From contig JBAZJK010000002.1 of the NCBI GenBank assembly GCA_041651355.1, forward strand, positions 1 through 54,470: DNA of 54,470 bases, written 5' to 3'. Below are positions 6,604 through 32,099 of the stretch, one piece after another (positions within the stretch are counted from its first letter, which is position 1; each line of letters begins with the position of its first letter). The notes under the pieces are model-generated. The model searched no databases and was not told the origin of the DNA. It was given only the letters and a program-made list of their open reading frames with translations. Source of the DNA: Patescibacteria group bacterium (lineage in GTDB: Bacteria; Patescibacteriota; Patescibacteriia; Patescibacteriales; UBA12465). A program made the position numbers and the translations under genes.

Positions 6604-9287
6604 AAGTTGCTCTTGTGCAATGCCCGGGCTGGGGCAGGGATTGCCCTCCTTATACGCTGGCGCTTTTTGCAGCATATCTGCGTCAAAATGAACATCGTGT
6701 TTTCAGTTACGATATCAATAACGCACTTTATTGTAGCGGACCTGACAAGTACAGGAGGATGTGGGATGACAAGGATCTCTATTCCTTTTGGAGCAACAAG
6801 TCCCTCATTACAGAGTTTATCCGGGACAACGAGAGGATGGTGGAATTTCAAGTAAAACATATTTTAGACAGCGGCGCCAAAATCATCGGTTTTAGCGTTC
6901 AGTTTAGTTCTCTGCTTGTCAGTTTAGAGGTAGCTCGCAGGATTAAGGCTAAATCCAGGGATAGAATTATTGTTTTTGGAGGTCCGGACTGCTGCCGCCA
7001 TTTACGGGGCTCAGAGATAATAAAAGAGGATTGCGTAGATGTCGTAGCGCTTGGCGAAGGAGACACAACATTATTAGAGTTAGTGAATATGGTAGAACTG
7101 GACGGCAAGGTAGAAAATTGCCCGGGCGCCTTACTTAAAAAAGAAGGGAAGATTTTTGATTGCGGCGACGGGATTGCAGTGAGAGATCTTGATCTTATCC
7201 CCTTTCCAGATTATAGCGATTTCAGAAAAGATATTATGGCCGGTCATTATCGTCAGCCCGAACGCCTAGAGATATTTGACAGCCGGGGATGCATTACTCG
7301 TTGCCATTTCTGCAGCGAATGGCAGTTTTGGCAAAATTATCGTTCCATGAGCGGAGAGAGAATATTCGAAGAGGTTGCTTATCAGATAAGGCGTTTTCCC
7401 GGAACGGAATATTTTTATTTTATCGGTTCACTCTTAAACGGGAATATAAAATCATTAAACAGGTTTTGTGATTTGGTAATACAGAATAGTCTGGTGGTAA
7501 GATGGGCCGGTCAGGCGGTAATAAGGCCAGAGATGAGCGCGGAACTTTTAGGAAAAATGAGAAAGGCCGGTTGCGAATGGTTGGGATATGGCATTGAAAG
7601 CGGCTCGCAGAGAGTAGTGGACAGCATGAATAAGCACTTCTTTATTGCGGATGCCGAAAGGGTATTAAGGGATACCCATCAGGCAGGGATTGGCACCCAG
7701 GTTAATTTTATGTTCGGCATTCCCACTGAGACATTGGAAGATTTTAAGGAAACACTGGAATTCCTTAAAAGAAACAGGGAGAACATTGATTCGGTTCTAG
7801 CAAGCCAATCGTTCTGCGTTTTAGACAAAGGCACATACCTTTACAACCATGCCGAGGAATTCGGCATCAGGAATCCCGATCATCATCTGTATTGGGAGAC
7901 AGACGGCAACGATTATCCGGAGAGATTCAGAAGGTATGAGGAATTTTGTAGTCTAGCCCTGTCTTTGGGGCTTCCGGAGACATCGGGCGTACTAAGGTTG
8001 AAACCCGACAAATGGGCGCTCTTGGGGGATTATTACCTTTTCAAGAAAGACTATCCCATGGCCAAAGAGTGCTTTCTTAAATCTATGGAAAGAGAATCCA
8101 GCAACAATACGGTCTCTGCGAAATTAGAGCTATGCGTCAAAGATCCGGAGGGAGCTCCTGGCGCTGCCCAGCGGGCTGAACTGCAGATCTACCCGGCAGA
8201 AGTTGCCGGAGAGCTTAGCGGGATGCAACAGAAAATCAGGGATGCGCTTAGTCGCTTTGGCCTGGCGGGGAAATTACGCAACTTCCTTGCAATGGAAAAA
8301 GAGAAACAGGAGCGCAGGGAAGAATTGGAATCCCATCCTTACTGGTTGACCATTGATCCCGCAAATTTTTGCACCCTTAGGTGCCCTTTTTGCCCTACCG
8401 GACAGAATCGCGGCTCTAGGGAAAAAACCAAGCTTTCCTTCGATAGTTTTGAAAAGATAATAGATGAGCTAGGCCCGTATTTAATCCATATAGATTTCTG
8501 CAACTGGGGGGAGCCCCTTTTGAATAAAGACATCTATAAGATGATAAGATGCGCCAAGGGGTATGGTATCGACACAAAGATAGACTCAAACCTTAACGTT
8601 TTCAGCGAAGAGGACGCCGAGGACATCGTATCATCGGGGCTGGATAAGATAATCGTCTCGATTGACGGGGCAACTCAGGGGTCATATTCGAAATACAGGA
8701 TAGGAGGGGATTTTAACGTCGCGTTAAATAACCTCAGGTTATTGATTGAGAAAAAAAGAGAGCTCCGCAAAGCAAATCCGTATATCTGCTGGCAGTTTCT
8801 TGTCTTCAGGCACAATGAGCACGAGACCGAAAAAGCGAAATCCATAGGCAGGGACCTGGGGGTTGACGACGTATCGATCACCAAGGCGTTTATCGGTAAT
8901 AAAGATTGGATACCACTTAATGAGCACTACAGTCATTACAAAAATAGCGAGATTGGCGATGACCAGTATACCTCCGGCTATTTCAAGTCTGCCAACGAAG
9001 AATTCTGTAATTGGCCGTGGGAAGCAATAGTAATAAATTCCAACGGATCCGTTTCGCCATGCTGTTCTGTTGAAGACGAAAAATACGATTTCGCAAACAT
9101 ACTGAAGCAGCCGTTTAAAGAACTCTGGAATAACGAAAAGTATATCAGGGCAAGAAGGTTTATCGGCAAGAGAGGCGGATGCGGTAGAGATAACGCAAAT
9201 ATATGCCACGGATGCAGGCACTCAGGACTAATCAATATAGATATACTTTCTTGCCACTCGTTATTTAATCGCGATGATAATAAATAA
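6600..9287 (+). CDS. Cobalamin-binding radical SAM fused via a TPR-like linker to a second radical SAM/SPASM domain (modules E+D)
   Basis: N-terminal B12-binding-type region (MKVALVQCPGWG...PP, GFSV, FGGP, GEGD). CITRCHFC at 7290-7313, GIESGS. TPR-like WALLGDYYLFKKDYPMAKECFLKSME. Second motif CTLRCPFC at 8370-8393, NWGEP, CNWPW...PCC...CHGC. Confidence 0.9.
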   Translation: MKVALVQCPGWGRDCPPYTLALFAAYLRQNEHRVFSYDINNALYCSGPDKYRRMWDDKDLYSFWSNKSLITEFIRDNERMVEFQVKHILDSGAKIIGFSVQFSSLLVSLEVARRIKAKSRDRIIVFGGPDCCRHLRGSEIIKEDCVDVVALGEGDTTLLELVNMVELDGKVENCPGALLKKEGKIFDCGDGIAVRDLDLIPFPDYSDFRKDIMAGHYRQPERLEIFDSRGCITRCHFCSEWQFWQNYRSMSGERIFEEVAYQIRRFPGTEYFYFIGSLLNGNIKSLNRFCDLVIQNSLVVRWAGQAVIRPEMSAELLGKMRKAGCEWLGYGIESGSQRVVDSMNKHFFIADAERVLRDTHQAGIGTQVNFMFGIPTETLEDFKETLEFLKRNRENIDSVLASQSFCVLDKGTYLYNHAEEFGIRNPDHHLYWETDGNDYPERFRRYEEFCSLALSLGLPETSGVLRLKPDKWALLGDYYLFKKDYPMAKECFLKSMERESSNNTVSAKLELCVKDPEGAPGAAQRAELQIYPAEVAGELSGMQQKIRDALSRFGLAGKLRNFLAMEKEKQERREELESHPYWLTIDPANFCTLRCPFCPTGQNRGSREKTKLSFDSFEKIIDELGPYLIHIDFCNWGEPLLNKDIYKMIRCAKGYGIDTKIDSNLNVFSEEDAEDIVSSGLDKIIVSIDGATQGSYSKYRIGGDFNVALNNLRLLIEKKRELRKANPYICWQFLVFRHNEHETEKAKSIGRDLGVDDVSITKAFIGNKDWIPLNEHYSHYKNSEIGDDQYTSGYFKSANEEFCNWPWEAIVINSNGSVSPCCSVEDEKYDFANILKQPFKELWNNEKYIRARRFIGKRGGCGRDNANICHGCRHSGLINIDILSCHSLFNRDDNK

Positions 9288-9338
9288 AGGACACGCCGTT
9301 TATCTAAATAACCCCGGTTTTGATACAGAAGCAATATT

Positions 9339-12113
9339 ATGAAAATCGCACTTATTCAATGCCCGGTATGGGGCACCTATGATCCGCCGCTCGCCTTAGC
9401 CCAGCTTTCCGCCTGTCTGAAGAAAGACGGACATGAGATATGCGCTCTGGATTTGAATATCGAGCTATATCTTAGCCGCCAGGAAAATTATAAGAATACC
9501 TGGGCCTGGGAACAATCTCTTTTTTGGTACAATCAGGAGTGCGTATCAAAATTTCTTGCCGATAACAAAGACACAATAAATAAATACGTAGAACAGATTG
9601 TTGACGGCGGATATGGCGTGGTTTGTTTTTCTGTAACGGCAGCTTCAAAACTGTCCAGTCTGGAATTAGCGCGGTCAATCAAGAAACGCAACAAGGGTAT
9701 CATTATAATATTCGGAGGTACCCTATTTTTTGACAGGAATTTTATAAAAGTAATATTAAGCGACGCATCCGTAGATATCGTAGCATGCGGAGAAGGAGAA
9801 GTAACATTATCTGAATTGGCAAGGCTCATAGAAAATAAAGAACACTTAGATGCCTGCCGCGGGATAGCTTTTAAAAATAAAGGCATACGGGTTAACCCCG
9901 AACGGCCTTTAATCGGAGATTTGGATGATCTACCGTTTCTGGATTTTTCCCAATTGCCGCTATCCAACTATGACGATAAAGGCCACGTCGCATTTCTATC
10001 CAGTCGCGGTTGTTGGCAACAATGCGTATTCTGCAGTTCCCGGACATTCTGGGCCGGCTACCGCAGGATGAGCGCTAAGAGGATTTTTGATGAAATACAC
10101 TTCCACTATAAAAATAATGACGAGGTTAGGCATATTGACTTCTTGGATTTGATGTTTAACGGAGATATAGAAGAGCTTAATTCATTCTGCGACCTGATGA
10201 TTGGTTCTGAGTTAAAGGGGAGGATATGTTGGGCAGCTAATGCTATTATCAGGCCCGAGATGACCCCTGCGTTATTAAACAAGATGAAGGCGGCAGGCTG
10301 TAAGCATCTCATCTATGGCATCGAATCAGGGTCGCAGAAGGTATTGAATTTAATGAAAAAACGATACAGGATAGAAGATGCCGATATCGTAATCAAGGCT
10401 ACCCATGAGGCCGGCATAGTAGTGACCGCTAATTTTATGTTTGGTTTCCCCGGAGAGAGCGAAGAAGATTTCGGGCAGACGCTTGGTTTTCTCAAGAGAA
10501 ATGCCAGGTATCTGGATAGGGCTTATCCCAGCCGCACCTTTTGCGCCCTGGAGGAAGACAGTTATTTACACGCGCATTTAGAAGAATTCGGTATCAAGCC
10601 CAATCCGCCCAATCATTTATATTGGGAGTCGCTCGACAGCCAAAATACCTACCCCGAGCGACTGAGGCGATGCGAGGAATTCTGCAATCTCGCATCTTCC
10701 TTGGGGATCGAAGTAGCCAGCGGCGTACAGACATCCGTAGAGCTAGACCGCTGGTTTAATCTGCTGCATTACTACGAACAGAAAAAAGACATAAAGAACA
10801 TGCTTCAGTGCTGCCTGAACTATTATAAATCAGAGCCCGATAACGAGTTCGTTGTGGGAAAAATTGAAAAATATTTTTATGGATTACAAGAAGAAGAAAG
10901 AGAAAAAATTCTCGGAGCGAGGTTATTCTCCGAATTGCAGATAGTTGTCAATAAGATAGGCTCCAAATGTTCTGCCCTCGCCTTAGTGTCAAATCAACAG
11001 GTAGAAAAGATTGGCAGAGAAAAAAGCTTTGCTTTAGCGATAGCCGAACAGCGGGACAATAAACAGCTCACCGAGACGGAATATCATAATAATGAGAGTA
11101 GCCTTAATTCCTGGCCAAGGGTTTTGTTCATTCAAGCCTCCGGACCATGCAATTCAAGTTGCGTATTTTGCTCCCGCGGCGATAATTACAAGATGTTTGA
11201 CTTGGAGGAATTTAAGAAAGGTTTTGTTGAAAATTTCTACTTTTTGTTTTATATAGCGGAAAAGATTGTTTTAACGGGTTCAGGCGAATTTCTTCTTTTG
11301 CCCGAGGCAGAAAAAATATTGGATTATTTCGATGAAAATTTTCCGCATATAGAGAAGATGTTTGCGACCAACGGCTCGGGTCTCCTCCCCAGCATAGCTA
11401 AAAAAATCGTAGATAGTAAAAGCAGGTATACAATTCATTTTTCTTTACACGCTTCCAATCACAAGCTGCACAAAACCCTTACCCGGATGGATAATTTTTA
11501 TAAGATATTAGGTCAATTGAAGTATTTACTTGATATCAGGAAAGACAAGGAGAGGCCAGCCGTCCACCTTACCTTTGTAGCTACAACCTTGAACATCGAG
11601 GACCTTCCTAACTTCGTCAGGTTGGCTTCCAACCTGGGAGTCGATAAGGTCGTATGTTATTATAACTATATATATGTACCTGCCCAGAAGTATCTCTCAT
11701 GTTTTTTTAAACAGGATATTACCAACAGCGTGCTGGATGAAGCCGAAGATTTAGCAAGGAGTCTAAAGGTACAACTTGAGCTCCCCCCCAGGTTTAAACA
11801 GAAGGAATATCCCAAATTAGATATCTGCCGCGAGCCGTGGACGCAGGTAATGTTTGATATCGACGGTAATGTTTTGCCATGTGATGCCTCGGAAGACTTC
11901 CGAGGCAATCTCAAAAATGCCAAACATTTCCATGAGATTTGGAACGGGCAGCATTACCGCAGGTTAAGGGAGTCTTTAATTAATGGCACCAGCGATTGTT
12001 TTAAGTATTGTTTTAGGGCAAATCCGGCGGCGGTTAATGATTTTCGCTCCCATGTCATACGTAGAGGCAGGGAGGCGTCAGAAATAGATGTTTATTGGGG
12101 GGATAACTTTTAG
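9339..12113 (+). CDS. Cobalamin-binding radical SAM fused to a second radical SAM/SPASM domain (modules E+A)
   Basis: MKIALIQCPVWG...PP, FGGT, GEGE. SRGCWQQCVFC at 10011-10034, GIESGS. Second motif CNSSCVFC at 11148-11171, SLHAS, LSCFF, LPPRF, CREPW. Confidence 0.9.
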   Translation: MKIALIQCPVWGTYDPPLALAQLSACLKKDGHEICALDLNIELYLSRQENYKNTWAWEQSLFWYNQECVSKFLADNKDTINKYVEQIVDGGYGVVCFSVTAASKLSSLELARSIKKRNKGIIIIFGGTLFFDRNFIKVILSDASVDIVACGEGEVTLSELARLIENKEHLDACRGIAFKNKGIRVNPERPLIGDLDDLPFLDFSQLPLSNYDDKGHVAFLSSRGCWQQCVFCSSRTFWAGYRRMSAKRIFDEIHFHYKNNDEVRHIDFLDLMFNGDIEELNSFCDLMIGSELKGRICWAANAIIRPEMTPALLNKMKAAGCKHLIYGIESGSQKVLNLMKKRYRIEDADIVIKATHEAGIVVTANFMFGFPGESEEDFGQTLGFLKRNARYLDRAYPSRTFCALEEDSYLHAHLEEFGIKPNPPNHLYWESLDSQNTYPERLRRCEEFCNLASSLGIEVASGVQTSVELDRWFNLLHYYEQKKDIKNMLQCCLNYYKSEPDNEFVVGKIEKYFYGLQEEEREKILGARLFSELQIVVNKIGSKCSALALVSNQQVEKIGREKSFALAIAEQRDNKQLTETEYHNNESSLNSWPRVLFIQASGPCNSSCVFCSRGDNYKMFDLEEFKKGFVENFYFLFYIAEKIVLTGSGEFLLLPEAEKILDYFDENFPHIEKMFATNGSGLLPSIAKKIVDSKSRYTIHFSLHASNHKLHKTLTRMDNFYKILGQLKYLLDIRKDKERPAVHLTFVATTLNIEDLPNFVRLASNLGVDKVVCYYNYIYVPAQKYLSCFFKQDITNSVLDEAEDLARSLKVQLELPPRFKQKEYPKLDICREPWTQVMFDIDGNVLPCDASEDFRGNLKNAKHFHEIWNGQHYRRLRESLINGTSDCFKYCFRANPAAVNDFRSHVIRRGREASEIDVYWGDNF

Positions 12114-12940
12114 TGGTCGAAAATAGCGTTCCTTTACGGTTTACCTGGGATATCCATTATAAGTGCAATTTCCGCTGTCCTTACTGCTGGTTTTATAAAA
12201 AATGGATAAGCGAAGGCAGGCGGTATCTTCTTCTTTCCCCCGACGAATGGCTTAAGCACTGGTTAAAGGTTCGCAATCGCTATGGAGAAGCAGATATCGC
12301 TATTACCGGCGGGGAACCGTTTCTTTATCCGAATTTTATCGAGATAATAAAAATACTGTCTTTGATACACAGGATAAAGATTACCACGAATATGTCAGGT
12401 GATATCGATACCTTTGTTAAGCAGATAGCCCCCAGCAGAGTAACGTTAGACCTGAATTTCCATCCGCTCTTTTCTGAAATAGGAAGTTTTATAGAAAAGA
12501 CCCTTCTTTTAAAAAAGGCGGGTTTCCGGGCCGGCGTATGTTATTTGGCCTATCCTCCTCAAATGGGGCAGATAGATATTTTTAGAAGGCGTTTTGAGGA
12601 AGCGGGGATTAACTTTGCCCTTGCCGCTTTCTGGGGTGAATTTGAAGGCAAGAGATACCCGCAGAGCTACACTCCACAGGAGTTGGATTTTATACGTCCG
12701 TTTTTAGGAGACATCGACAGGATTGTTTATCATCTGGGCGCCGAAACCCCCCGCGGAAAACTCTGCAATGCGGGGTATACCTACGCAATTGTTCAAGGGG
12801 ATGGTTATGTAGTAAGATGCGGTCAGTTAGCAGATAAGTTCATAGGAAATATTACGGATGAAGATTTTAATCTCTTTGATTCGCCAAAGGCCTGCGAAGC
12901 GGAGTTTTGCCCGTGCAATGAATACGTTAATTTAATCTAA
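12113..12940 (+). CDS. Compact radical SAM protein with short C-terminal Cys domain (module B)
   Basis: GTG start overlaps the upstream TAG. FTWDIHYKCNFRCPYC, GGEPF, TTN, YPP, C-terminal C...RC...CEAEFCPC. Confidence 0.88.
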   Translation: MVENSVPLRFTWDIHYKCNFRCPYCWFYKKWISEGRRYLLLSPDEWLKHWLKVRNRYGEADIAITGGEPFLYPNFIEIIKILSLIHRIKITTNMSGDIDTFVKQIAPSRVTLDLNFHPLFSEIGSFIEKTLLLKKAGFRAGVCYLAYPPQMGQIDIFRRRFEEAGINFALAAFWGEFEGKRYPQSYTPQELDFIRPFLGDIDRIVYHLGAETPRGKLCNAGYTYAIVQGDGYVVRCGQLADKFIGNITDEDFNLFDSPKACEAEFCPCNEYVNLI

Positions 12941-12967
12941 AGAAAACTCGAGCCCCGGGTAGCCATC

Positions 12968-14845
12968 ATGAATGAGACGTCTAAGTATTTCAGAAAAAAC
13001 ATATTTCCCAAGAGGGTATTTTTAAACTGGGAGGTTACTCATCAGTGCAATTATAATTGTTTGTACTGTTCAATTCATAAGCCATTAACGACTGAATCTC
13101 TGCCCCGCCTGTCTATGGGAAAAATGAAGGAGATAAGCTGCGGGATATATGAGAGCTACGGAAGTTGTCATATAAGATTTTCAGGAGGGGAGCCTTTTGT
13201 TTGCCCGGATTTTATCCAGTTTCTTCGGGTGCTTTCAGAGTATCATACCCTGGAAGTCTCGACCAATCTCTCTGCGGATGTAAATAATTTAAAGGAACGA
13301 CTGTGTCCGGAGGGCCTGCTTTTATCAAGCAGTTTTCATCCGCAGTTCATTGATATCCACGAATTTCTAAAGAAGGTCCTATTTTTAAAAAATAGCGGGT
13401 TCGATATTTCGGTTACCTTTGTAGCATATCCTCCATTTTTGGCGCAACTAAAATATTATAGAGAGACCATAGAGAATAATGGAATACAATTCATCATTCA
13501 GCTTTTTAGCGGCGCATTCAACGGCCTAAGGTATCCGGAGTCATATACAGATGAGGAAAAAATGTTACTTAAAGAGCAGGCCGGCCTTTCTTTGCACAAA
13601 GATGCTAATAAGCAGATATACGAATCAAAGATGGATATCGGGAGAATCCACGCTCGCATTTGCCGCATGGGCCAGATGTATGCCAAGATCGACAATAATG
13701 GCGATGTATTCCGCTGTTGCGCATCAGGTAGCCCCAAATTGGGTAATATATTTAATGGTGGCTTGCAATTGTTGGATAAACCCCAGGCGTGCGAAATTAA
13801 CCCTTGCCCGTGTTGGAAGGCTATGATAGTAGGAGAAGAAGAGGTCTGGCTTAAGAATTGGGAATATCAAAAGCATCGGAAAGAAGGTAATTCCATTGAG
13901 GGAGGTGGTAACTTGGAGTCGTCTCTTAATATCAAGGAGACCATCCCGAGAGAATCAATTCCTCCCCACCGCGTATTTTTTACTTGGGATATCCATTATA
14001 GATGCAACTACAGGTGCACATATTGTAATGCCCCAAAGCCGGGGCAGGGAGGCTTTATTGAGGCGCGATACCTGCCGATTGATAAATGGTTAGCTATTTG
14101 GGGAGATATTTATGAAAGGTACGGCAGGTGCCAGATACAGTTATCGGGAGGCGAGCCGTTTATTTATCCCGGAGCCATGGATTTAGTAATACAGCTTTCT
14201 AAAATACATACCTTGGAATTTTCAACTAACTTTTATTGGGACATCGAGCCTTTTATACAAAATGTTAGTCCGGACAGAGCGCGGATAGGCGTAAGTTTTC
14301 ATCCCGAATTTGCTGATTTCGGTTCATTCTTAGACAAAGCCTTAAGGTTAAAAAGAAACGGGTTTGAAGTGTGGGTAAATTACGTAGCTTATCCCGCCTT
14401 ACTAAAAGACATGCCGGGATATAAACTTGAAATAGAGAGAGCGGGGATGCATTTTTCAATTTTGCCGTTCACGGGGCAATTTGAAGGGAGGGTATTTCCC
14501 GGGGGATATACTGAGCGCGAAATGATGGTTATAAATGAGGGGTATGTGGCGGCCGACGAAGTCAATAAAAAAACAATAGATTGGAATATGGGTGAACAAA
14601 AGAACAAGACCAAAGGAAAATTATGCCGCATGGGGCAAATGTACGGAAAGATCCGTCCTAATGGATTGGTGCATAGGTGTTGCGGCACCCCGGCTAGTGA
14701 GTTGGGCAACATAATCGATGGGACGTTTAAGTTATCGGAGGAACCCCTGGCTTGTGAGTCAGAGCAGTGTCCTTGCTGGCGATGTATGCTTGTATCGGAT
14801 GAAGGGCAGTGGTCAACCCATTGGGTTATACCTCATAAGCGCTAG
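12968..14845 (+). CDS. Tandem double radical SAM protein (modules B+B)
   Basis: Two homologous halves, CNYNCLYC and CNYRCTYC. Each half has GGEPF, STN, SFHP, CRMGQMY, and a C-x4-CPCW ending. Confidence 0.9.
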   Translation: MNETSKYFRKNIFPKRVFLNWEVTHQCNYNCLYCSIHKPLTTESLPRLSMGKMKEISCGIYESYGSCHIRFSGGEPFVCPDFIQFLRVLSEYHTLEVSTNLSADVNNLKERLCPEGLLLSSSFHPQFIDIHEFLKKVLFLKNSGFDISVTFVAYPPFLAQLKYYRETIENNGIQFIIQLFSGAFNGLRYPESYTDEEKMLLKEQAGLSLHKDANKQIYESKMDIGRIHARICRMGQMYAKIDNNGDVFRCCASGSPKLGNIFNGGLQLLDKPQACEINPCPCWKAMIVGEEEVWLKNWEYQKHRKEGNSIEGGGNLESSLNIKETIPRESIPPHRVFFTWDIHYRCNYRCTYCNAPKPGQGGFIEARYLPIDKWLAIWGDIYERYGRCQIQLSGGEPFIYPGAMDLVIQLSKIHTLEFSTNFYWDIEPFIQNVSPDRARIGVSFHPEFADFGSFLDKALRLKRNGFEVWVNYVAYPALLKDMPGYKLEIERAGMHFSILPFTGQFEGRVFPGGYTEREMMVINEGYVAADEVNKKTIDWNMGEQKNKTKGKLCRMGQMYGKIRPNGLVHRCCGTPASELGNIIDGTFKLSEEPLACESEQCPCWRCMLVSDEGQWSTHWVIPHKR

Positions 14846-14852
14846 GATATTA

Positions 14853-15692
14853 ATGGAAAAACTGAATAACAAACGGATTACATTCTCTTGGGATATACAT
14901 TATGCCTGTAATTATCGTTGTCCGTATTGTTGGTATGCGGCGGACGGGACGTTTTTAAAAAATAAAAATAAATACCTACCATTTAAAAAGCTGATAGATA
15001 TCTGGACCGACATGCATAGAAAACACGGTTCCTTATGGATTGATATAATCGGAGGCGAGCCGTTTATCTATCCTGATTTTAACGAGATAATCAGAGAGCT
15101 TTCCAAAATGCATTTCATAGAGATTACCTCTAATCTGTCAACTGATCTATCAAGCTCTCTAGGCGGGATAAACCCCGAAATGGTGCGCATCGCAGGGACG
15201 CTGCACCCCCTATTCGCAGACCTGCGCGTTTTTATCAGGAACTTACTGGCGCTTAAAGAGCATGGGATAAAAACCTTTGCGCTCTATTTGGCATATCCGC
15301 CTCAAATCCCTCTCATTCCGTATTACAGGGAGAAATTCGCTTATTGCGGGATAGACTTCTCGGTAATAACCTTCTGGGGGGAATATAGGGGTGTCAGGTA
15401 TCCTGAAGGATACAGCCAGGAAGAAATAAATATTATCGAGCCTTTTTTGGGAGAGCGAGGGGAGGAAAAATATCAATTGCGTCCTAAAGAGGTAAAGAGA
15501 AAAATATGCCGTGCCGGGCAAATTTACGTAAATCTAAAAGCCGACGGGTCTGCGTATAGATGTGGTTCCCATAAATCCCAATCATTGGGGAACCTGTTTG
15601 CGGGTAACTTTCAGTTGCTGGATAAGCCCATGCCGTGCGATTCAGACTTTTGTCCCTGCAATGAATGGGCCGGCTTGTTAGTCGAGACGTGA
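14853..15692 (+). CDS. Compact radical SAM protein (module B); start moved from 14718 to ATG 14853
   Basis: MEKLNNKRITFSWDIHYACNYRCPYC, GGEPF, YPP, CRAGQ, CDSDFCPC. ATG 14853 lies 8 nt after the upstream stop and aligns with the paralog starts. Confidence 0.88.
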   Translation: MEKLNNKRITFSWDIHYACNYRCPYCWYAADGTFLKNKNKYLPFKKLIDIWTDMHRKHGSLWIDIIGGEPFIYPDFNEIIRELSKMHFIEITSNLSTDLSSSLGGINPEMVRIAGTLHPLFADLRVFIRNLLALKEHGIKTFALYLAYPPQIPLIPYYREKFAYCGIDFSVITFWGEYRGVRYPEGYSQEEINIIEPFLGERGEEKYQLRPKEVKRKICRAGQIYVNLKADGSAYRCGSHKSQSLGNLFAGNFQLLDKPMPCDSDFCPCNEWAGLLVET

Positions 15693-15719
15693 TGCGAGGT
15701 TAATCAAAGGACAGACTGA

Positions 15720-16349
15720 ATGAGTAAAATGCTAAGCGGACTTGGAAGGGTCTTTGTGATCCTGACCGATGAACAAAATAAAATCTTGAGGCGCTCCGTT
15801 CTTATTGTGGATAACGGTTATTACCCGCAGGAGCACCTGCGCAGCGTTGTAGCGGAAACACAGAGGCGCATTCCGGCTTCCGAGGTCGCAATCCTTTCTT
15901 TTGAACATAGAAGAGGCTATCTTCAAGAAAATTTTCCAGATATCAAAGCTGTCTTTCCGGGAAAATGGATTAGGCCGCAAAGATATAGTTTAGCCATTAA
16001 GTTGTTAATCCTAAGCAGAAGGGGTTACGATTTTGTGGTTGTAATGTCTTTGGACAAGACGCCGATAATAGTTGCGTTATTGTTCATGAATGCACAGCTC
16101 TTTTTATATAATAGATGGAACGAATGGTATCTTTTGAGATTCAGGAACCCTTGGGAGTTTTTAACATTCAGGGAAGGACAGGATATAGCTAAATATAGAT
16201 CTCGAAACAGCCGGTTTATAAATTTATTTTTATTTATACCCAGACTCATTCTTCATGTTCTCGTATTCATATATTTAGCATCCTATAGTTTATTTCTTCT
16301 CTTTTATAGACTTTACAATATTATTAAAATCAGGTTATTGAAGAAATAG
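15720..16349 (+). CDS. Hypothetical protein with C-terminal hydrophobic segment; possibly a lone GT-B (GT9-like) N-terminal Rossmann domain
   Basis: In-operon ORF. VLIVD...FP.SEVAIL...YDFVVVM pattern resembles the GT9 N-domain. Hydrophobic FLFIPRLILHVLVFIYLASYSLFLLF near the end. Confidence 0.55.
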   Translation: MSKMLSGLGRVFVILTDEQNKILRRSVLIVDNGYYPQEHLRSVVAETQRRIPASEVAILSFEHRRGYLQENFPDIKAVFPGKWIRPQRYSLAIKLLILSRRGYDFVVVMSLDKTPIIVALLFMNAQLFLYNRWNEWYLLRFRNPWEFLTFREGQDIAKYRSRNSRFINLFLFIPRLILHVLVFIYLASYSLFLLFYRLYNIIKIRLLKK

Positions 16350-16365
16350 AACAAGAGAAGCGACT

Positions 16366-17424
16366 ATGGAAACCGATGTCCGGCAGTTTAGCTCCGATAA
16401 AATATTAAAGCATCTGGATCGCGTTAATGAATGGCTCGAGGGACTTAATCCCCCGCCGGTTACCGTTGAGCTGGACATGACAAATTTATGCAACCATAAG
16501 TGCCCCGAGTGCGTAGTTAACTATTTCAGAGTCGCCGATAAAAGCGCGCTTTCAGGCGTTACCGCTAAATCCATCATTAGACAATTAGCGAGAGCCAAGG
16601 TGAGGGGGTTGATATTCACGGGAGGCGGAGAGCCGCTTTGCAACCCCCATACCTTATCGGCCGTGGAATTGGCGAAGGCTAGCGGGTTAGACGTAGGCTT
16701 TATCACCAACGGCGCGCTCTTAAATCAAAAGATAGCAGGGGCTTTATTAGAGAGCTGCACTTGGATTAGGGTATCTCTGGATGCCGGCTCGCCGCGGGCG
16801 TTCCAGTCTACCCACGGCATGAATGATAGTGAGTTCCGTAAGGTCGTTGATAATATCGGGGTTTTGACAGGTCTCAAGAGAAAAATGAAAAACAGATGCA
16901 CCGTAGGCGTCGGTTTTCTTACCTGTGATTATACGACTACCGATATGGAGAAGGCGGCGGCATTGAGTAAAAGGATGGGCGTTGATTACCTGCAGTTTAG
17001 GCCGATGCAGATCCATAGAGGTGGAAAATTTGGGTATCATTGGTTAGACGTGCAGGCCAATATAAAAAAGTGCCTAAGATATTCCGGAAATGGTTTCCAG
17101 GTGCTTTATTCCAAACACAAATATGATATGGCCCACGACCCGCGTTTCGGCAGGCATTATCGGAAATGTTACGGGCATCAATTCGCGACGGTAGTAGCTG
17201 CGGATGCCAAGATGTATCTTTGTTGCCACACCCGCGGATACAAAAAATACTGTATCGGAGACCTGAAAAAAGATTCTTTTAAGAAAATCTGGAATTCCAA
17301 GAGGAGAAAAACGGTAGCCAAAAGGATTGATTTTAAGGACTGCATTCCTTTATGCCGCGATAATACTTTTAATCAGATACTGTGGAATATAAAACAAAAC
17401 AGGGAGCACGTGAATTTTCTATAG
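16366..17424 (+). CDS. Radical SAM/SPASM-like protein (module C)
   Basis: PVTVELDMTNLCNHKCPEC, GGGEP, ITNG, SLDAG. C-terminal CYGHQF...CC...IW...C...CR. Confidence 0.9.
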   Translation: METDVRQFSSDKILKHLDRVNEWLEGLNPPPVTVELDMTNLCNHKCPECVVNYFRVADKSALSGVTAKSIIRQLARAKVRGLIFTGGGEPLCNPHTLSAVELAKASGLDVGFITNGALLNQKIAGALLESCTWIRVSLDAGSPRAFQSTHGMNDSEFRKVVDNIGVLTGLKRKMKNRCTVGVGFLTCDYTTTDMEKAAALSKRMGVDYLQFRPMQIHRGGKFGYHWLDVQANIKKCLRYSGNGFQVLYSKHKYDMAHDPRFGRHYRKCYGHQFATVVAADAKMYLCCHTRGYKKYCIGDLKKDSFKKIWNSKRRKTVAKRIDFKDCIPLCRDNTFNQILWNIKQNREHVNFL

Positions 17425-17431
17425 CAATCTC

Positions 17432-18649
17432 ATGAAACGGCATAGTAACCCAGGAAATAAATTCTTGGTTATCAAGACAGTATCGGGTTATGTATTAAAA
17501 GGGTTTATTAGCGCAGCAGTTTTTTTAATAATTTTAGAAGCGGCACTGCAGATAACCGGGACAGCATATCTAAGATTAAAATATACAATTAAAAACCCGG
17601 AAGCGCTAAAGGACGATTCTTTACGCATAATGTTTATAGGGGATTCCTGGACGCAGGGGGCTGACGCAGCCCCGGGGCCGGGATATGTAATGCTGGTGAC
17701 GCAAGAATTGAACCGCCTTTACCCTGTTAAAAGCATCCAGGTATATAATTTTGCCTTAGGCAGCACGAATTCATCGCAGGCAATACATCAGTTTTTAGAC
17801 AACTATCGCAATATAAAACCCGATATATTGGTGGTTTTGACAGGGGCAAATAACGGATGGAATACCCAAGATATTATAACCGCCCGCAAGCGCATTAGAA
17901 ACGGGATAATTAATTATAATGAGCTGGAAAACACTAGTTTTGCCGAACAGTCCGCCAACTTTTTTAAAAAATTGAAGATCGCAAAGTTATATAACTTGAT
18001 TTCGTACAATATATTTTATAAATCCCAGGAAATCAAGATTCCCCTGCCCGACAATGAATACCTTCTTGGTTACCATAAAATTTTTAATGCTACCAGGGAT
18101 CCAGAAAAAGCAAGATTATATTTAATAAATAACTATAAGGAAAATACGACTGATTACAATGATCTTTATAAAGCAACGCGGCATTCCTTTGGAGGCGACA
18201 TAGAAAAAACCTTAAATTATTTAAAAAATAAAAACATGCTCAAACTTAATTTGATTAGCGAGAAAATAGATATAAAGAAGGATAGAACCAGTCGGTCTCT
18301 TCATTTGAAAATCCTGGAAGAGAATCTGACGGATTTGAAAGACCTGTGCGACCAGGAAGGCATAATAATGGTTGTAGAGAATTATCCTTATAATAGTATG
18401 CAGTTTAGAGCTGTCAACGATGCCCTCGGCAGAATATCTTCAAGGATAAATGCAGTCTATGTAAATCATTACGGGTATTTCAAGGATAAAGTTGGCTATG
18501 AAGAATGGGATAAGGTTATGACTAAGTCGCACGTTAATTATAAAGGTCACGAGTATATGGCGGACAATCTGGTTGAGATATTGAGCGCTGCTATTGCTAC
18601 TCAAGAGAGAAGCAAAAAAGATAGGGAGAATATGAATTCTGAAAAATGA
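17432..18649 (+). CDS. Membrane-anchored SGNH/GDSL-family protein (putative esterase or O-acyltransferase)
   Basis: N-terminal TM segment. Block I FIGDSW, block II NFALGS, block III TGANN, block V TKSHVNYKGH. Confidence 0.8.
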   Translation: MKRHSNPGNKFLVIKTVSGYVLKGFISAAVFLIILEAALQITGTAYLRLKYTIKNPEALKDDSLRIMFIGDSWTQGADAAPGPGYVMLVTQELNRLYPVKSIQVYNFALGSTNSSQAIHQFLDNYRNIKPDILVVLTGANNGWNTQDIITARKRIRNGIINYNELENTSFAEQSANFFKKLKIAKLYNLISYNIFYKSQEIKIPLPDNEYLLGYHKIFNATRDPEKARLYLINNYKENTTDYNDLYKATRHSFGGDIEKTLNYLKNKNMLKLNLISEKIDIKKDRTSRSLHLKILEENLTDLKDLCDQEGIIMVVENYPYNSMQFRAVNDALGRISSRINAVYVNHYGYFKDKVGYEEWDKVMTKSHVNYKGHEYMADNLVEILSAAIATQERSKKDRENMNSEK

Positions 18650-20523
18650 AACGCGGCCCCCTGAACAATAGATTGCATGCGGCTTGGGAGATTTTTTATA
18701 GGTGTAATTATAGGTGTCCCTATTGTTTTTTCTACGAGAGTTGGGCAGACCGCAGGATAAGCTATAAGCATGTACCAGCTGAGAAATGGATTGAATGCTG
18801 GGACAGAGTTTATGATAGATACGGGAGTGTAAATATCTGTATATCCGGCGGAGAGCCGTTTATCTATCCCGGCTTTATGAAGATAGTCGCCGAGCTGTCC
18901 AAGAGACACGCGCTGACGATTGTGACCAATTTATCATGGGAAACCGAGATATTTGTTAATACAGTATTTCCTCAAAGAGTGGCTATTCATCCGAGTTTGC
19001 ACCCCTTGTTTGCCGATTTAGGAATTTTTAAGAGTAAATTAAGACGCTTAAGAGAGAAGGGATTTGATGCTACGCCGACATGCGTAGGCTATCCTCCCCT
19101 ATTGAAAAAAGCCTTAGATATTAAGAAAGAATTAGAAAACGATAGATTTGGCTTGGTGGTTTCTCCGTTTTCTGGGGTGTACAATGGGATTCTGTATCCC
19201 CAGGGATATACTGATGAGGAGAGGCGTCTTGTAGGCATGCTCTCTGCAGATGACCCTAAGATGAAAAAATACCAGTTGGAAAAAGCTCCTACTAAAGGCA
19301 AATTGTGCAGTGCCGGGCAGGCATATATAAGGGTTCATCCGGATGGTGACATTTTCCGTTGTGCGCATGCTATTAAACCGATGGGCAATATTCTAACTGA
19401 TGATTTTAGCCTTTTGAAAGAACCGCAACCTTGTGAAGCGAATTCCTGTGAATGCGGGAATGAGCTGGTACACATTATCGACGATAAAACGACTAAATCA
19501 GAGAACATTTTAAGCGTTGACTCCTCATTTGTCAGGAAAGAACTAATAGTCGGTGGATACCCCTATCGTTTGCGCGTGGAAATATCTAATGCCTGCAATT
19601 TAAGATGTACGTCTTCAAAAGAGGCTTTCAGCAGATGTCCGCAGTGGGAGATTAACAATGCGGCTCCTGTTTTGATGTCATTTGATTTTTTTAAAAAGAT
19701 TGCGGATGAGACTGGACGGTATCTTACCCATGCCGAACTTTATAATTACGGCGAGCCTTTCATGAATCCCCGCGCCGTTGATATGATACGTTACCTTAAG
19801 CAGATAAATCCAGAGGTTATTATTGAGATGCATACGAACGGGCATTATTTTAAGACTGAGAAGAAAAGAGAAGATATTATCAATTCAGGTTTAGATATTT
19901 TGTCGTTTTCTGTAGACGGTATCACCCAAGAGGTATATGAGAAGTATCGTATCGGCGGGGATTTAGAGACGGTGCTTAGAGCTATCAGGGGAATCTGCGC
20001 TTTGAAAAAATCGATGAATATGCTGAAACCAAGGGTGATTTTTCAATTTATCGTATTTGAGCATAACTTCCATGAAGCGCCGAAGGTCGAAGAATTTGCC
20101 AAAGAGTTAGGGGCGGATGAGGTGGCTTTAAAGACCGATATCTTTAACCTCAGGCCCGAATTGAAGATTTCGCACGCGGATATCTATAGCGCCGTCGTCG
20201 GCCTTCAAAGCAAGGATAGCAGAGACAATTTTTTTAAGAAGGACGAAGATGCCGGCCGTCAGTTTTGCGATTTTCCTTGGGTTTATCCGACTATTCTTGC
20301 GGACGGCCGGGTAGTTATCTGTTGCCGGGATGGGCGTTATGAAAGTCTTGTCGGGGCAATCGGGGGTAGAACTTTAATCCAGGTATGGAATAACGAGGCA
20401 GCCCAGGAATTCCGCAGGAGATTCTTGGAAGAAGATACCAAACCCTACCCCTGTTCTCTATGCGAATGTAGGCCGAAAAATAATAGTATCACTGTGGGTG
20501 AAAAATGCAGTTGCCGGAATTGA
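18646..20523 (+). CDS. Double radical SAM protein (modules B+D); second domain has an atypical CX3CX9C motif
   Basis: CNYRCPYC, GGEPF, CSAGQ, CEANSCEC. Then SNACNLRCTSSKEAFSRC, NYGEP, SVDG, YRIGGD, CDFPW...CC...CSLC. Confidence 0.88.
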   Translation: MKRGPLNNRLHAAWEIFYRCNYRCPYCFFYESWADRRISYKHVPAEKWIECWDRVYDRYGSVNICISGGEPFIYPGFMKIVAELSKRHALTIVTNLSWETEIFVNTVFPQRVAIHPSLHPLFADLGIFKSKLRRLREKGFDATPTCVGYPPLLKKALDIKKELENDRFGLVVSPFSGVYNGILYPQGYTDEERRLVGMLSADDPKMKKYQLEKAPTKGKLCSAGQAYIRVHPDGDIFRCAHAIKPMGNILTDDFSLLKEPQPCEANSCECGNELVHIIDDKTTKSENILSVDSSFVRKELIVGGYPYRLRVEISNACNLRCTSSKEAFSRCPQWEINNAAPVLMSFDFFKKIADETGRYLTHAELYNYGEPFMNPRAVDMIRYLKQINPEVIIEMHTNGHYFKTEKKREDIINSGLDILSFSVDGITQEVYEKYRIGGDLETVLRAIRGICALKKSMNMLKPRVIFQFIVFEHNFHEAPKVEEFAKELGADEVALKTDIFNLRPELKISHADIYSAVVGLQSKDSRDNFFKKDEDAGRQFCDFPWVYPTILADGRVVICCRDGRYESLVGAIGGRTLIQVWNNEAAQEFRRRFLEEDTKPYPCSLCECRPKNNSITVGEKCSCRN

Positions 20524-20542
20524 ATTACAAATTTAAACGATA

Positions 20543-21628
20543 ATGAGGTCCGGGCAATCAGAAAACAAGGCGCTTAACGAAAAAGAATATGTTGCCCGAA
20601 AAGACATTCTGCAATCCGGTCCTAGCAACATAATTTTATGCTCAACTTATAAATGTAATATGAGTTGTATTTTTTGCTTGGGGAGAGGTCAAGACCCCGA
20701 TTTCAACTGCGATATTTATAAAAAAATTTTCGAAAATAAATTACGCCGGTTTTTAGAAAATGCTACGGATATCTGTTTTACGGGATGGGGAGAATTCCTA
20801 TTATGGCCCGGGGCAGCGGACTTCTTAGGTTATCTTAACGAGCATTTCCCCGAAGCAAACAAGATTCTTACCACTAACGGCACCCCCTTGTCGGAAGCCA
20901 TGGCGAGCAAGATGATAATCGGAAATTATACGGTACAGGTCTCCTTACATACATCTGATGCGCTTATCCATAGGTCGCTTACGCAGTCTGATTTTTTTGA
21001 GCAGATTGTCATGAATCTGGACAATTTGATTCTGCTAAGAAACGAGAACAGTTGCCATTCAAAATTATGGATAGTCTTGATGTTCCTTGTAACCTCATTA
21101 AATATTGAAAATTTACCTGATTTTGTGGATTTTGCAGGATTGCGCGGGGTAAACGAGGTATTTTGTAACTATATAACTATTTTTTTGCCTGAGCAGATTG
21201 GGTTGTCATGTTTTTTCTCGCCCCAGAACACTAACCGGATATTTGATGAAGCGCAAAAGAGGGCTCAAAGATATAATATGCGTTTAAATCTGCCTCCTCG
21301 GTTTGGCCTAACAGACGGCATGCAGCGAGAAAGCGTATGCCAAGACCCCTGGAACACTGTTTTTATAGACGGGTTAGGGAATATCCACCCCTGCTGTTTT
21401 TCCGGCAGACCTATAGGCAATATTAACATGGATGATTTTGGGGCGATATGGAATGGAGAAAATTACAGGGAATTGCGCAATTGTTTAACCGAGAATAGGT
21501 CACATGAAAGATGTAAAAATTGCTATAAGTTTTCTCCGGTAAACGTTAACGATATAAAGTCACACGTTACCTTTCGCGACATTCGCGCCAAAGAAGATAT
21601 TTTTAGAAGATTAAACCTAGAAGCTTAA
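20543..21628 (+). CDS. Radical SAM/SPASM-domain protein (module A)
   Basis: CNMSCIFC, GWGE, TTNG, SLHTS, LSCFF, LPPRFG, CQDPW...PCC...CKNC. Confidence 0.9.
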   Translation: MRSGQSENKALNEKEYVARKDILQSGPSNIILCSTYKCNMSCIFCLGRGQDPDFNCDIYKKIFENKLRRFLENATDICFTGWGEFLLWPGAADFLGYLNEHFPEANKILTTNGTPLSEAMASKMIIGNYTVQVSLHTSDALIHRSLTQSDFFEQIVMNLDNLILLRNENSCHSKLWIVLMFLVTSLNIENLPDFVDFAGLRGVNEVFCNYITIFLPEQIGLSCFFSPQNTNRIFDEAQKRAQRYNMRLNLPPRFGLTDGMQRESVCQDPWNTVFIDGLGNIHPCCFSGRPIGNINMDDFGAIWNGENYRELRNCLTENRSHERCKNCYKFSPVNVNDIKSHVTFRDIRAKEDIFRRLNLEA

Positions 21629-21648
21629 TTTTAATATAAGAGTTAAAG

Positions 21649-31178: not shown

Positions 31179-32099
31179 GTGAGAAATAAAAAACAGGCAT
31201 GCGCTATTAATGCAAGACAAGAAATGCTTAAAAGGCTGCAGTTGCCCTTAAGATATAATTATATAGCCTGTTTCTTGACCTTGGATTGCAACTTTAATTG
31301 TGATTACTGCATTAACTGGTTTAACGGCAGGAAGAAATATAAAGAAACAGGCATTTCCGGTAAAGAGTGGGTAGAGGGCCTAAATCGTCTCGATTGCCCC
31401 GACGACCTACCCGTTACCATCCAAGGCGGAGAACCGGCCATGCATCCGGATTTTATATGGATAATCAAAAATATCAGGATGGGTTTAAACATCGACATCC
31501 TAACCAATCTCTCATTTAATGTCGAGGAATTCATTAAGAGCGTTAATCCTCTCCGCTTGCGCAGGGAGGCGCCTTATCCCAGCATCAGGGTAAGCTATCA
31601 TCCTTCCCATGCCGATTTAGACGTACTTATGACAAAGGTTTTAAAGATGCAGCATGCCGGGTTTTCCGTAGGGATTTTCGGTATTTTGCACCCCGGCTTC
31701 GAAGAAAATATTCTAAAGGCGCAACAACGCTGCAGAGAGGCGGGAATAGACTTTAGGACAAAAGAGTTCTTGGGTGAGTTTAGGGGGCGCATATACGGCA
31801 CTTATCTGTATCCCGAAGCCATAGGAGGCAGTCGGCAGAAGAGTTGTTTTTGCAGAACGTCCGAACTTATTATCGGACCGGAAGGAAACATTTACCGGTG
31901 TCACCATGACCTCTATGAAGATTCTTCTAAGATAGGCAACCTTTTAGACCCGAACTTCGAAATTATAGATATATTTAGAGAATGTAGCCGGTTCGGAGAA
32001 TGCAATCCTTGCGATATGAAGGTTAAGACGGACCGTTTTCAAGTTTATGGATATACTGCGGTTGAGGTAAAAGATATCCAGGGTAAAGGGGCGCAGTAA
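31179..32099 (+). CDS. Radical SAM protein with short C-terminal Cys domain (distantly related to module B)
   Basis: GTG start. CNFNCDYC, QGGEP, LTNL, VSYHP, CFCR...RC...CNPC. Confidence 0.88.
   Translation: MRNKKQACAINARQEMLKRLQLPLRYNYIACFLTLDCNFNCDYCINWFNGRKKYKETGISGKEWVEGLNRLDCPDDLPVTIQGGEPAMHPDFIWIIKNIRMGLNIDILTNLSFNVEEFIKSVNPLRLRREAPYPSIRVSYHPSHADLDVLMTKVLKMQHAGFSVGIFGILHPGFEENILKAQQRCREAGIDFRTKEFLGEFRGRIYGTYLYPEAIGGSRQKSCFCRTSELIIGPEGNIYRCHHDLYEDSSKIGNLLDPNFEIIDIFRECSRFGECNPCDMKVKTDRFQVYGYTAVEVKDIQGKGAQ

Follow-up and report, generated by a model that had tools for sequence, protein, structure and literature searches.

Ancient radical SAM/Twitch paralogs in a multi-gene array and their possible role in sugar tailoring

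The locus described here raises the question of why one stretch of DNA should carry five copies of the same compact radical SAM domain, and what these copies might do. The window, that is the whole stretch that was analysed, comprises 54,470 nucleotides of contig JBAZJK010000002.1. A first-pass annotation, made from the sequence alone, had proposed that an uncharacterised subfamily expanded in place and that its products perhaps work as hetero-oligomers. We arrived at a different reading, to which we assign a probability of about 0.6: the five domains would be old, separate paralogs with an SkfB/STM4011-type Twitch domain, acting as independent units in the radical tailoring of sugars. Sugar-acting radical SAM enzymes are known mainly from single tailoring steps of antibiotic pathways. 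The contig differs in composition and codon usage from the other contigs of its bin, and no sequence is shared between them that would provide an assembly link. It is probably an Omnitrophota contig placed in the wrong (Patescibacteria) bin, and annotations that credit the array to the Patescibacteria bin need further proof. An Rfam scan of the 54-kb window returned no RNA family.

One radical SAM subfamily with a Twitch tail

Membership in the radical SAM superfamily was clear from Pfam PF04055 (36-83 bits, cut-off 29.5) and from the CN(Y/F)xCxYC and GGEPF motifs, which are invariant in all five domains. The domains picked out earlier (A, B1, B2, C and D1, ~275 aa each; Table 1) were found with all the motifs that had been listed for them, except that the proposed terminal CExxxCxC holds in four domains and reads CDxxxCxC in C. 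As had been described, A, B1, B2 and C lie back to back, spanning 3,580 bp with gaps of at most 28 nt. Pairwise identity among the five is 32-40%, and because each domain scores 437-469 bits with their joint profile, chance resemblance can be excluded. They form one subfamily rather than falling into separate well-known families, and since no curated model names them (above cut-off only the generic Pfam Radical_SAM model matched), the earlier description of the subfamily as uncharacterised stands. In the numbering of A, the residues invariant in 5/5 domains are W12, C18-N19, C22, Y24-C25, GGEPF and H117-P118 on the N-terminal side, Y147-P148, G175, P183, Y186 and E190 in the middle, and C218, G221, G231, R235-C236, G245-N246, C261, C266 and C268 on the C-terminal side.

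Table 1. Radical SAM genes, domains and motifs of the array, with adjacent genes (window coordinates).
Feature	Position (strand)	Length	Description
Two upstream genes	6600-12113 (+)		Directly upstream of A; each a fusion of B12-binding radical SAM and SPASM radical SAM
A	12113-12940 (+)	275 aa	Compact Twitch radical SAM
A, cluster motif	12164-12187		CNFRCPYC
A, tail	12893-12916		C261-x4-C266-x-C268
B	12968-14845 (+)	625 aa	Two family domains (B1, B2)
B1	12968-13867 (+)		N-half of B; WKAMIVGEEE-W...W extension past its CPC
B2	13946-14845 (+)		C-half of B
C	14853-15692 (+)	279 aa	Length counted from ATG at 14853
209-aa gene	15720-16349 (+)	209 aa	No family match; hydrophobic C-terminus
SPASM gene	16366-17424 (+)	352 aa	Radical SAM/SPASM enzyme
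Hydrolase gene	17432-18649 (+)	405 aa	GDSL/SGNH hydrolase
D	18646-20523 (+)	625 aa	Two domains (D1, D2)
D1	18646-19524 (+)		N-half of D; fifth family copy
D2	19546-20523 (+)		C-half of D; radical SAM/SPASM domain of other type
Downstream SPASM gene	20543-21628 (+)	361 aa	Radical SAM/SPASM enzyme
E	31179-32099 (+)	306 aa	Radical SAM core; Twitch-like tail C-x5-C-x2-C

Gene boundaries affect how the domains are read. The public gene call for B begins at M50, with which B1 would lose its CxxxCxxC motif. An alternative, longer open reading frame of C starts at 14718 and runs into B. Gene E had been called a more distant relative, which its 23-29% identity to the five domains and its differing tail bear out; its match to the joint profile (97 bits) is confined to the N-terminal two thirds.

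A Twitch domain was recognised by a C-x9-15-G-x4-C motif spanning a beta-hairpin, then a helix and no more additional cysteines than a single cluster needs, and a SPASM domain (PF13186/TIGR04085) by seven cysteines, including CX2CX5CX3C, for two auxiliary clusters. The family has C218-x12-G231-x4-C236 and then C261, C266 and C268, and the AlphaFold2 (AF2) model of A (pLDDT 94.5, pTM 0.91) places strands at 224-227, 232-234 and 243-246 and a helix at 270-273, with pLDDT above 90 in this region. PF13186 matched none of A, B, C or the N-half of D, in agreement with the proposal of a Twitch-like rather than a SPASM domain; within gene D the match is restricted to the C-half (residues 541-606). Across 225 domains from 78 loci, C218, C236 and C261 are conserved at ~100%, C266 at ~99% and C268 at 85%, and the same conservation was seen in 138 domains from 50%-identity representatives. 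The C-x4-C-x-C tail is present as described. It is not unusual, being of a known type that also occurs in SkfB and in two STM4011-annotated proteins, and annotations should take it as an SkfB/STM4011-type Twitch domain.

Ancient, separately conserved paralogs in a recurrent set

The phylogeny of the domains that the first-pass annotation had called for did not bear out expansion in place. Each of A, B1, B2, C and D1 falls in a clade of its own, in which its counterparts come from 18-40 other loci, most of them in Omnitrophota and Elusimicrobiota (18 loci in the B1 clade; 34 rows from 31 loci in the C clade, FastTree support 0.996). A tree forcing the five window domains together was rejected by the AU test (delta lnL 344, p 1.9e-60). 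Identity to counterparts elsewhere is 49-80% (50-74% for A in Omnitrophota and Elusimicrobiota), against the 32-40% found among the window paralogs. On this sequence evidence, the five domains are ancient, separately conserved paralogs and not the product of a local expansion. At E<=1e-30 the family counts 725 representatives, and many of these contain two or three domains; 5-9 copies per locus are common, with varying fusions, and five genomes of 1.1-2.1 Mb hold 7-11 copies each.

The hetero-oligomer proposal likewise found no support. In the AF2 model of B, a natural fusion of B1 and B2, two well-folded domains are joined by a linker of ~25 residues that is predicted to be disordered (pLDDT below 50 at residues 309-323), and the domains take no fixed relative position (pTM 0.54, in a run made without multimer modelling, for which transient hetero-complexes lie out of reach). 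The B1-B2 fusion is maintained in full-length homologues of 58-80% identity, and fusion partners vary by genome (A with A, C with B2, A with B1, C with B1). The fusion model, the changing partners and a stand-alone counterpart of D1 in the nearest relative suggest that the domains are probably independent catalytic units, often on one chain, rather than fixed heterodimers. If a single gene had recently expanded in place to give obligate hetero-oligomers, the adjacency of the genes, the pairing of two domains on one chain and the retention of all catalytic motifs would be readily explained. The grouping of the domains with those of other genomes, the lower identity within the window than between loci, the variable fusion partners and the lack of a fixed interface in the fusion model make such an origin very improbable.

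The five paralogs are part of a recurrent Omnitrophota/Elusimicrobiota set in which Twitch arrays occur together with SPASM and B12 radical SAM enzymes. Homologues of the upstream B12/SPASM fusions lie near 31/35 multi-copy arrays, and those of the downstream SPASM gene (20543-21628) occur no more than 10 kb from the array in 27/35 multi-copy loci. Three loci (L002, L081 and L082) share the gene order of the window array, including a SPASM radical SAM gene in the position after the A-B-C run. The 209-aa gene keeps its position in the nearest related clusters (a 209-aa gene in L081 and L082), and in the nearest relative nothing corresponds to the GDSL/SGNH hydrolase at its place in the array. 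In L081 the counterpart of D1 is a stand-alone gene (277 aa, 49% identity), and D2 shares just 22% identity with the SPASM gene that stands apart from it there. The best-conserved partners within 10 kb of the arrays are other radical SAM enzymes, not glycosyltransferases.

A possible role in sugar tailoring and its alternatives

In the loci that we examined, the recurrent radical SAM set lies amid glycosyltransferase and other sugar-handling genes. The very large cluster in the window encodes GT2, GT4, GT9, GT-C, GH5, SGNH, aminotransferase and transketolase-like proteins. The family is accompanied by a GT2, a carbamoyltransferase and an ABC-2 exporter in an Elusimicrobia locus, by a GT8, a GT2 and a sulfotransferase in a Pacearchaeota locus, and by an FkbM methylase, a GT28-like protein, a GT4 and a YdjC protein in a Desulfovibrionaceae locus. 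Surroundings rich in glycosyltransferases recur in several phyla and suggest that radical chemistry tailors a surface glycan, although this link draws on a context that varies between loci, because the best-conserved partners are themselves radical SAM enzymes. The first-pass idea that the copies may act on successive sugar positions is compatible with such a setting.

Each paralog would be expected to bind two Fe-S clusters, the auxiliary one probably ligated by C218, C236, C261 and C266, with C268 as a spare or alternative ligand. If the domains do act on sugars, the 5'-deoxyadenosyl radical would take a hydrogen from a sugar unit, each paralog having its own position or residue, and this unit may be nucleotide-linked, lipid-linked or already within a polymer. 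The substrate radical could then be oxidised via the Twitch cluster to a keto sugar, a dehydrogenation comparable with those of BtrN, SpeY and anSME, or it could be quenched to give an epimer. The products would be passed on to the adjacent aminotransferase, methylases and glycosyltransferases. A more far-reaching version of this scheme, which we put forward tentatively and consider doubtful, is that a surface polysaccharide or lipid-linked repeat is rebuilt by a whole radical SAM battery (at least five Twitch enzymes with SPASM and B12 enzymes, some fused to a glycan polymerase), its residues being oxidised, epimerised, deoxygenated or C-methylated at many positions without oxygen or NAD. Were this the case, it would be radical chemistry on glycans on a scale undescribed in any polysaccharide pathway, and it would give the STM4011-like clade its first function.

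The enzymes might instead mature peptides or proteins in the manner of RiPP pathways, cross-linking, epimerising or otherwise modifying them, with the B12 partners as proteusin-like C-methyltransferases. Of the solved structures, that of the peptide-modifying SkfB matches best by sequence, and its tail is likewise CX4CXC. For the adjacent B12 domains, the NCBIfam models that come first, though below cut-off, are those of RiPP C-methyltransferases, and it is radical SAM enzymes and not glycosyltransferases that are conserved as neighbours. A leader-binding (RRE) domain, however, would have no space in these proteins, where the cluster motif begins at residue 18-27 in four domains and follows a linker of ~25 residues in B2. 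The SkfB-type model TIGR04403 gives 35 bits, far from its cut-off of 300. The genes are separated by gaps of at most 28 nt, and all small open reading frames in 11900-21700 overlap a large gene. The 54-kb contig yielded no precursor-like gene, whereas it is well stocked with sugar-handling genes. We therefore regard a peptide substrate as unlikely, yet as the most serious competitor of sugar tailoring.

Two further readings fared worse. An Elusimicrobia preprint describes up to 13 radical SAM genes adjoining group VI nitrogenase paralogs (10.1101/765248), and GWA2_69_24, a genome named there, carries the window family (L046), as would be expected of cofactor or tetrapyrrole enzymes linked to nitrogenase-like paralogs. 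In that genome, however, family members and NifH-like genes do not share a contig; a second genome has seven copies on another contig, plus one partial copy at ~36 kb from a NifH-like gene. No NifH-like gene was present in 3/5 family-bearing genomes searched, and the window proteins that were scanned gave no match to the NifH family, which leaves this reading highly improbable. Viperin-like (pVip) antiviral enzymes making chain-terminating nucleotides came up through weak pVip/viperin model matches and through viperins among the fold matches. These matches are limited to the first 70-100 residues, that is the shared radical SAM core, at 28-76 bits against the NCBIfam cut-off of 180, with 36-65 bits over roughly the first 100 residues for the prokaryotic viperin models (NF038283/PADLOC pVip) and no full-length match; viperins have no Twitch cluster, and the surroundings are glycan genes rather than defence genes. 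As only the shared core matched, we rejected the defence reading, the least probable of all.

In this family a compact Twitch enzyme has diversified into several long-lived, co-travelling paralogs, which uncultivated anaerobes carry within probable cell-surface glycan clusters. Should the link to glycans prove true, the arrays would be a source of new sugar chemistry and would open a way to the function of a whole clade, which comprises at least 700 sequence clusters and takes in the STM4011 family. We know of no substrate on record for any member of the window family or the STM4011 family. Literature searches on radical SAM enzymes in Omnitrophota/Elusimicrobia and on Twitch enzymes with polysaccharides found no description of these arrays, and a search on STM4011 found one paper, which was unrelated.

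Comparison with sugar-acting enzymes, SkfB and STM4011

BtrN, SpeY, BlsE and anSME abstract a hydrogen and then oxidise or decarboxylate sugar-like substrates. A fold search with the AF2 model of A returned SPASM/Twitch enzymes as its best matches (BlsE, anSME, SuiB, MoaA and SpeY), led by BlsE (7VOB) and anSME (4K37) with E ~1e-9 and TM ~0.6. Because no structure is close (TM ~0.6), the search assigns no chemistry, and its matches leave dehydrogenase, epimerase, dehydratase and decarboxylase chemistry undistinguished. Like the window domains, BtrN (4M7T), SpeY (7WZV), BlsE and anSME combine a partial TIM-barrel radical SAM core with a C-terminal auxiliary-cluster domain, but sequence identity is 15-20%, the TM-score of SpeY is only 0.38, and BtrN is faint by sequence (E 0.007). 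To our knowledge, none of the four occurs in multi-paralog arrays.

SkfB is the sporulation killing factor sactisynthase of Bacillus subtilis. A profile search of the PDB ranked it first (6EFN), with all five Twitch cysteines aligned: C333-x17-C351...C380-x4-C385-x-C387 in SkfB corresponds to C218-x17-C236...C261-x4-C266-x-C268 in the window. The TIGR04403 score of 34.8 bits stems from the core only. The SkfB paper names Cys333, Cys351, Cys385 and Cys387 and calls the motif CX4CXC/CXC (PMC6231123). In the crystal, the cysteine preceding the CXC is no ligand, whereas in the window family this position is ~100% conserved and the last cysteine just 85%. SkfB also carries at its N-terminus an RRE domain for peptide binding and acts on a peptide, and the window proteins have no RRE.

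No NCBIfam model matches A, B and C better than the STM4011 model NF038073, which ranks second for D; the four genes score 76, 121 (two domains), 70 and 89 bits in that order, below its cut-off of 200. A six-frame search of the window gave 24-91 bits, whereas a true STM4011 member, the one of the two annotated proteins that was scanned, scored 400 bits. The cassette partners other than STM4013/NF038075 were sought in the window's genome with three models, and none was found: NF006067 gave just a 38-bit match on another contig, NF038074 gave none, and NF038076 gave none, a weak negative given that control genomes returned no match either. STM4011 was not found in 400 sampled Pseudomonadota genomes, its members coming from a plasmid collection, and the cassette was seen in two loci (L079 and L080). 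STM4011 proteins resemble the window domains in size (~280 aa) and in end-to-end architecture. The two annotated proteins share with them the N-terminal CNYxCxYC, the TNLS and HP motifs, C..G....C and the C-x4-C-x-C tail (PCRMKECGC and SCKRKVCDC). Identity, in contrast, is only 24-27%, and STM4011 proteins have GE where the window family has GGEP. The two also differ in their setting: STM4011 occurs singly, in an invariant cassette of five genes whose other members are STM4012 (HemN-like), STM4013, STM4014 and STM4015, whereas the window family forms arrays of 5-11 copies among glycan genes.

Descent of the five domains

The first-pass annotation described five copies of a compact radical SAM domain, and alignment bore this out. 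A, B1, B2, C and D1 are 32-40% identical in pairwise comparison and share 47 invariant columns, which include every motif named there. Common to all five are WD/EI...CN(Y/F)xCxYC, GGEPF, HP, YP, G..(Y/F)P..Y, C..G, RC and a C-x4-C-x-C tail. The terminal CExxxCxC proposed in that annotation holds for four of the domains, but C begins its tail with CD. Genes A to C, said to hold four copies back to back in 3.6 kb, indeed span 3,580 bp with intergenic gaps of at most 28 nt. The ORF at 31179-32099 was rightly called a more distant relative: it is 23-29% identical to the five, matches their profile over two thirds only, and ends in C-x5-C-x2-C. The C-terminal half of D is a radical SAM/SPASM domain distinct from the family. 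The public gene call for B is 576 aa long and starts at Met50 (window 12968-13115), which would delete the CNYNCLYC cluster motif of B1; the ATG at 12968 yields a complete B1 domain, and homologues measure 625-639 aa.

Genes carrying the compact domains, with the clade of each domain in the FastTree phylogeny
Gene	Position	Strand	Product	Clade
A	12113-12940	+	ORF, 275 aa	A: 59 rows, 40 loci
B	12968-14845	+	ORF, 625 aa; two homologous halves, B1 and B2	B1: 18 rows, 18 loci; B2: 29 rows, 22 loci
C	14853-15692	+	ORF, 279 aa	C: 34 rows, 31 loci
D	18646-20523	+	ORF, 625 aa; N-terminal half D1 is the fifth family copy	D1: 26 rows, 20 loci

It had also been proposed that the copies expanded in place. 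A FastTree phylogeny of 225 domains places each window domain in a separate clade (SH-like support 0.81-0.996). An IQ-TREE analysis (LG+C20 PMSF, quick search) was confined for speed to 88 rows from the window and 19 loci, and every nearest neighbour listed for A, B1, B2 and C was a domain of another genome. Constraining the five to one clade cost 344 log-likelihood units (AU p 1.9e-60), and counterparts elsewhere outdo the in-window paralogs in identity (A up to 74%, B 80%, D1 49%). Because of these separate clades, the AU rejection and the closer counterparts in other genomes, expansion in place is wrong. The five are old and were passed down, or transferred, together.

Gene order in the nearest related cluster (L081) matches that of the window: a giant glycosyltransferase, a SPASM gene and two B12-SPASM fusions, followed by A, B, C, a 209-aa protein, SPASM, D1 and SPASM, and then by GT9, GT2, GT4, GT-C and GH5. 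There D1 stands alone as a 277-aa gene (49% identical) with a separate SPASM gene behind it (window 17432-20523 against L081 14584-16562). Unlike that stretch, the window has a GDSL hydrolase gene upstream of D1, and its D1 shares a chain with a SPASM domain just 22% identical to the L081 SPASM gene. Fusions are frequent in the family and their partners vary (A-A, C-B2, A-B1 and C-B1, with B1-B2 in the window). AlphaFold2 predicted A alone with pLDDT 94.5 and pTM 0.91. Modelled with 77 didomain homologues, the natural B1-B2 fusion gave halves of pLDDT ~95, a disordered linker (residues 309-323) and a pTM of 0.54, with no confident mutual arrangement of the halves. The suggested hetero-oligomers found no support in the model, in the varying fusion partners or in the separate D1 gene of L081. 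The fusion model fits independent catalytic units on a string; transient complexes would also be compatible with it.

Spread of the family and host of the contig

An exhaustive profile search gave 725 representative clusters with E<=1e-30, rising to 2,989 with E<=1e-10; many of the representatives carry the family domain two or three times or are fused to other modules. Named records are mostly from Omnitrophota and Elusimicrobiota/Endomicrobia, with scattered single copies in Desulfovibrionaceae, Bacteroidota, Clostridia and some CPR bacteria. Arrays are common: they comprise 5-9 full-length domains in a 20-kb locus, and five genomes of 1.1-2.1 Mb have 7-11 each. A contig of a Pacearchaeota-labelled bin (L062 3194-15551) carries seven copies, of which six are uninterrupted tandem genes encoding 304-317 aa; provided that this contig was binned correctly, the family would also occur in archaea (DPANN). 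In a Desulfovibrionaceae MAG (L067 9974-11197) the one family domain has TPR repeats fused to its C-terminal side, and its gene is flanked by an FkbM methyltransferase gene on one side and GT28-like and GT4 genes on the other, with a chemoreceptor gene adjoining. In Elusimicrobia GWA2_69_24 (L046 12318-13868) the fusion partner is a metallo-beta-lactamase-fold domain, and the neighbours include a 1,094-aa beta-helix (NosD-like) protein as well as additional radical SAM genes of SPASM and B12 type.

The window is a complete contig of a 1.07-Mb bin, and no full-length family member was found in 150 sampled genomes of the bin's phylum (all 0.7-1.2 Mb). The tetranucleotide correlation of all five 10-kb pieces with the bin's main contig is 0.82-0.88, below the 5th percentile of that contig's own distribution (0.887; median 0.96). 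Codon frequencies correlate at 0.78, against at least 0.947 for equal-sized random gene sets of the main contig, and the Cys content is 2.2% versus 0.9%. The contig shares no sequence with other contigs of the bin, and the contigs closest to it, which keep its gene order, come from Omnitrophota. Mis-binning of an Omnitrophota contig is the likeliest explanation; a recent foreign island is less likely. The 3' end of the window (53920-54470) falls within a TPR gene built from ~102-bp tandem DNA repeats, 83-95% mutually identical, which is probably why the assembly stopped there.

Sugar-handling neighbours and a proposed role

All 54 kb of the contig form a single plus-strand cluster. It encodes about a dozen glycosyltransferases (GT2, GT4, GT9, PMT_2-type GT-C, YfhO-like), one GH5, several SGNH hydrolases, a class III aminotransferase, a split transketolase-like pair and over a dozen radical SAM domains. 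Neighbours that handle sugars are seen again in distant hosts: GT2/YdjC, a carbamoyltransferase and an ABC-2 exporter at an Elusimicrobia locus; GT8, GT2, a sulfotransferase and a methyltransferase at the Pacearchaeota-labelled locus; and FkbM methylase, GT28-like, GT4 and YdjC at the Desulfovibrionaceae locus. Across 35 multi-copy loci, the neighbours kept most consistently within 10 kb are further radical SAM enzymes (27 loci with the SPASM type, 30-31 with the B12 type), and particular glycosyltransferases are not among the consistently conserved ones. Fold matches are SPASM/Twitch enzymes, including BlsE, SpeY and anSME. BlsE and SpeY act on sugars or cyclitols, and anSME oxidises its substrate radical via an auxiliary cluster.

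On the best reading, the paralogs would perform position-specific radical tailoring of a sugar unit. Each would abstract hydrogen from its own position, and the Twitch cluster would then accept an electron, resulting in dehydrogenation; alternatively, the substrate radical may be quenched, giving epimerisation. Similarity to the Twitch enzyme SkfB suggests instead a peptide (RiPP) substrate, but the window family proteins lack an RRE domain, no free small ORF was found between 11900 and 21700, and the contig yielded no precursor-like gene. A tie to the nitrogenase-like paralogs of groundwater Elusimicrobia (preprint 10.1101/765248) was not borne out, the NifH-like genes being on other contigs or absent. 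Viperin-like defence enzymes matched in the shared radical SAM core only.

The Twitch tail and its known counterparts

Across 225 domains (78 loci), C218, C236 and C261 (numbering of A), like the three cysteines of the SAM cluster, are kept in ~100%, C266 in ~99% and C268 in 85%, and 138 domains from 50%-identity representatives gave the same picture; the tail cysteines are conserved in homologues. Since four Twitch cysteines are near-universal, a fully ligated auxiliary cluster is suggested, in which the last cysteine would be optional. The SPASM/Twitch signature opens with CX9-15GX4C. C218-x12-G231-x4-C236 forms this first half and just three further cysteines follow, so that the C-terminal domain is Twitch rather than SPASM, as first annotated; Pfam SPASM likewise had no match in A, B, C or D1.

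When a profile of 115 family members was compared with all PDB sequences, the top match was SkfB (6EFN), in an alignment covering both Twitch parts, including pCesekCpc against KCEAKNCKC. In the SkfB structure, Cys333 precedes and Cys351 follows a hairpin, CX4CXC comes next, and its CXC pair, Cys385 and Cys387, binds the auxiliary cluster (PMC6231123); this is the layout of the window domains. Among NCBIfam models, NF038073 (STM4011 family radical SAM protein) ranks first for A, B and C and second for D, with scores of 70-121 bits where the cut-off is 200. Membership of that family is ruled out by these scores, by 24-27% identity to two STM4011-annotated proteins taken from plasmid records, and by the absence of the partner genes STM4012, STM4014 and STM4015 from the window's genome (the STM4015 search was also silent in control genomes). 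We found no paper on the window's family or on STM4011 function. Both annotated proteins, of which the Paenibacillus one scores 400 bits against NF038073, nevertheless carry CNYxCxYC, TNLS, HP, C..G....C and the C-x4-C-x-C tail. Because SkfB and the STM4011 proteins share it, the tail, initially regarded as unusual, is a known type of a wider clade and not peculiar to this locus.
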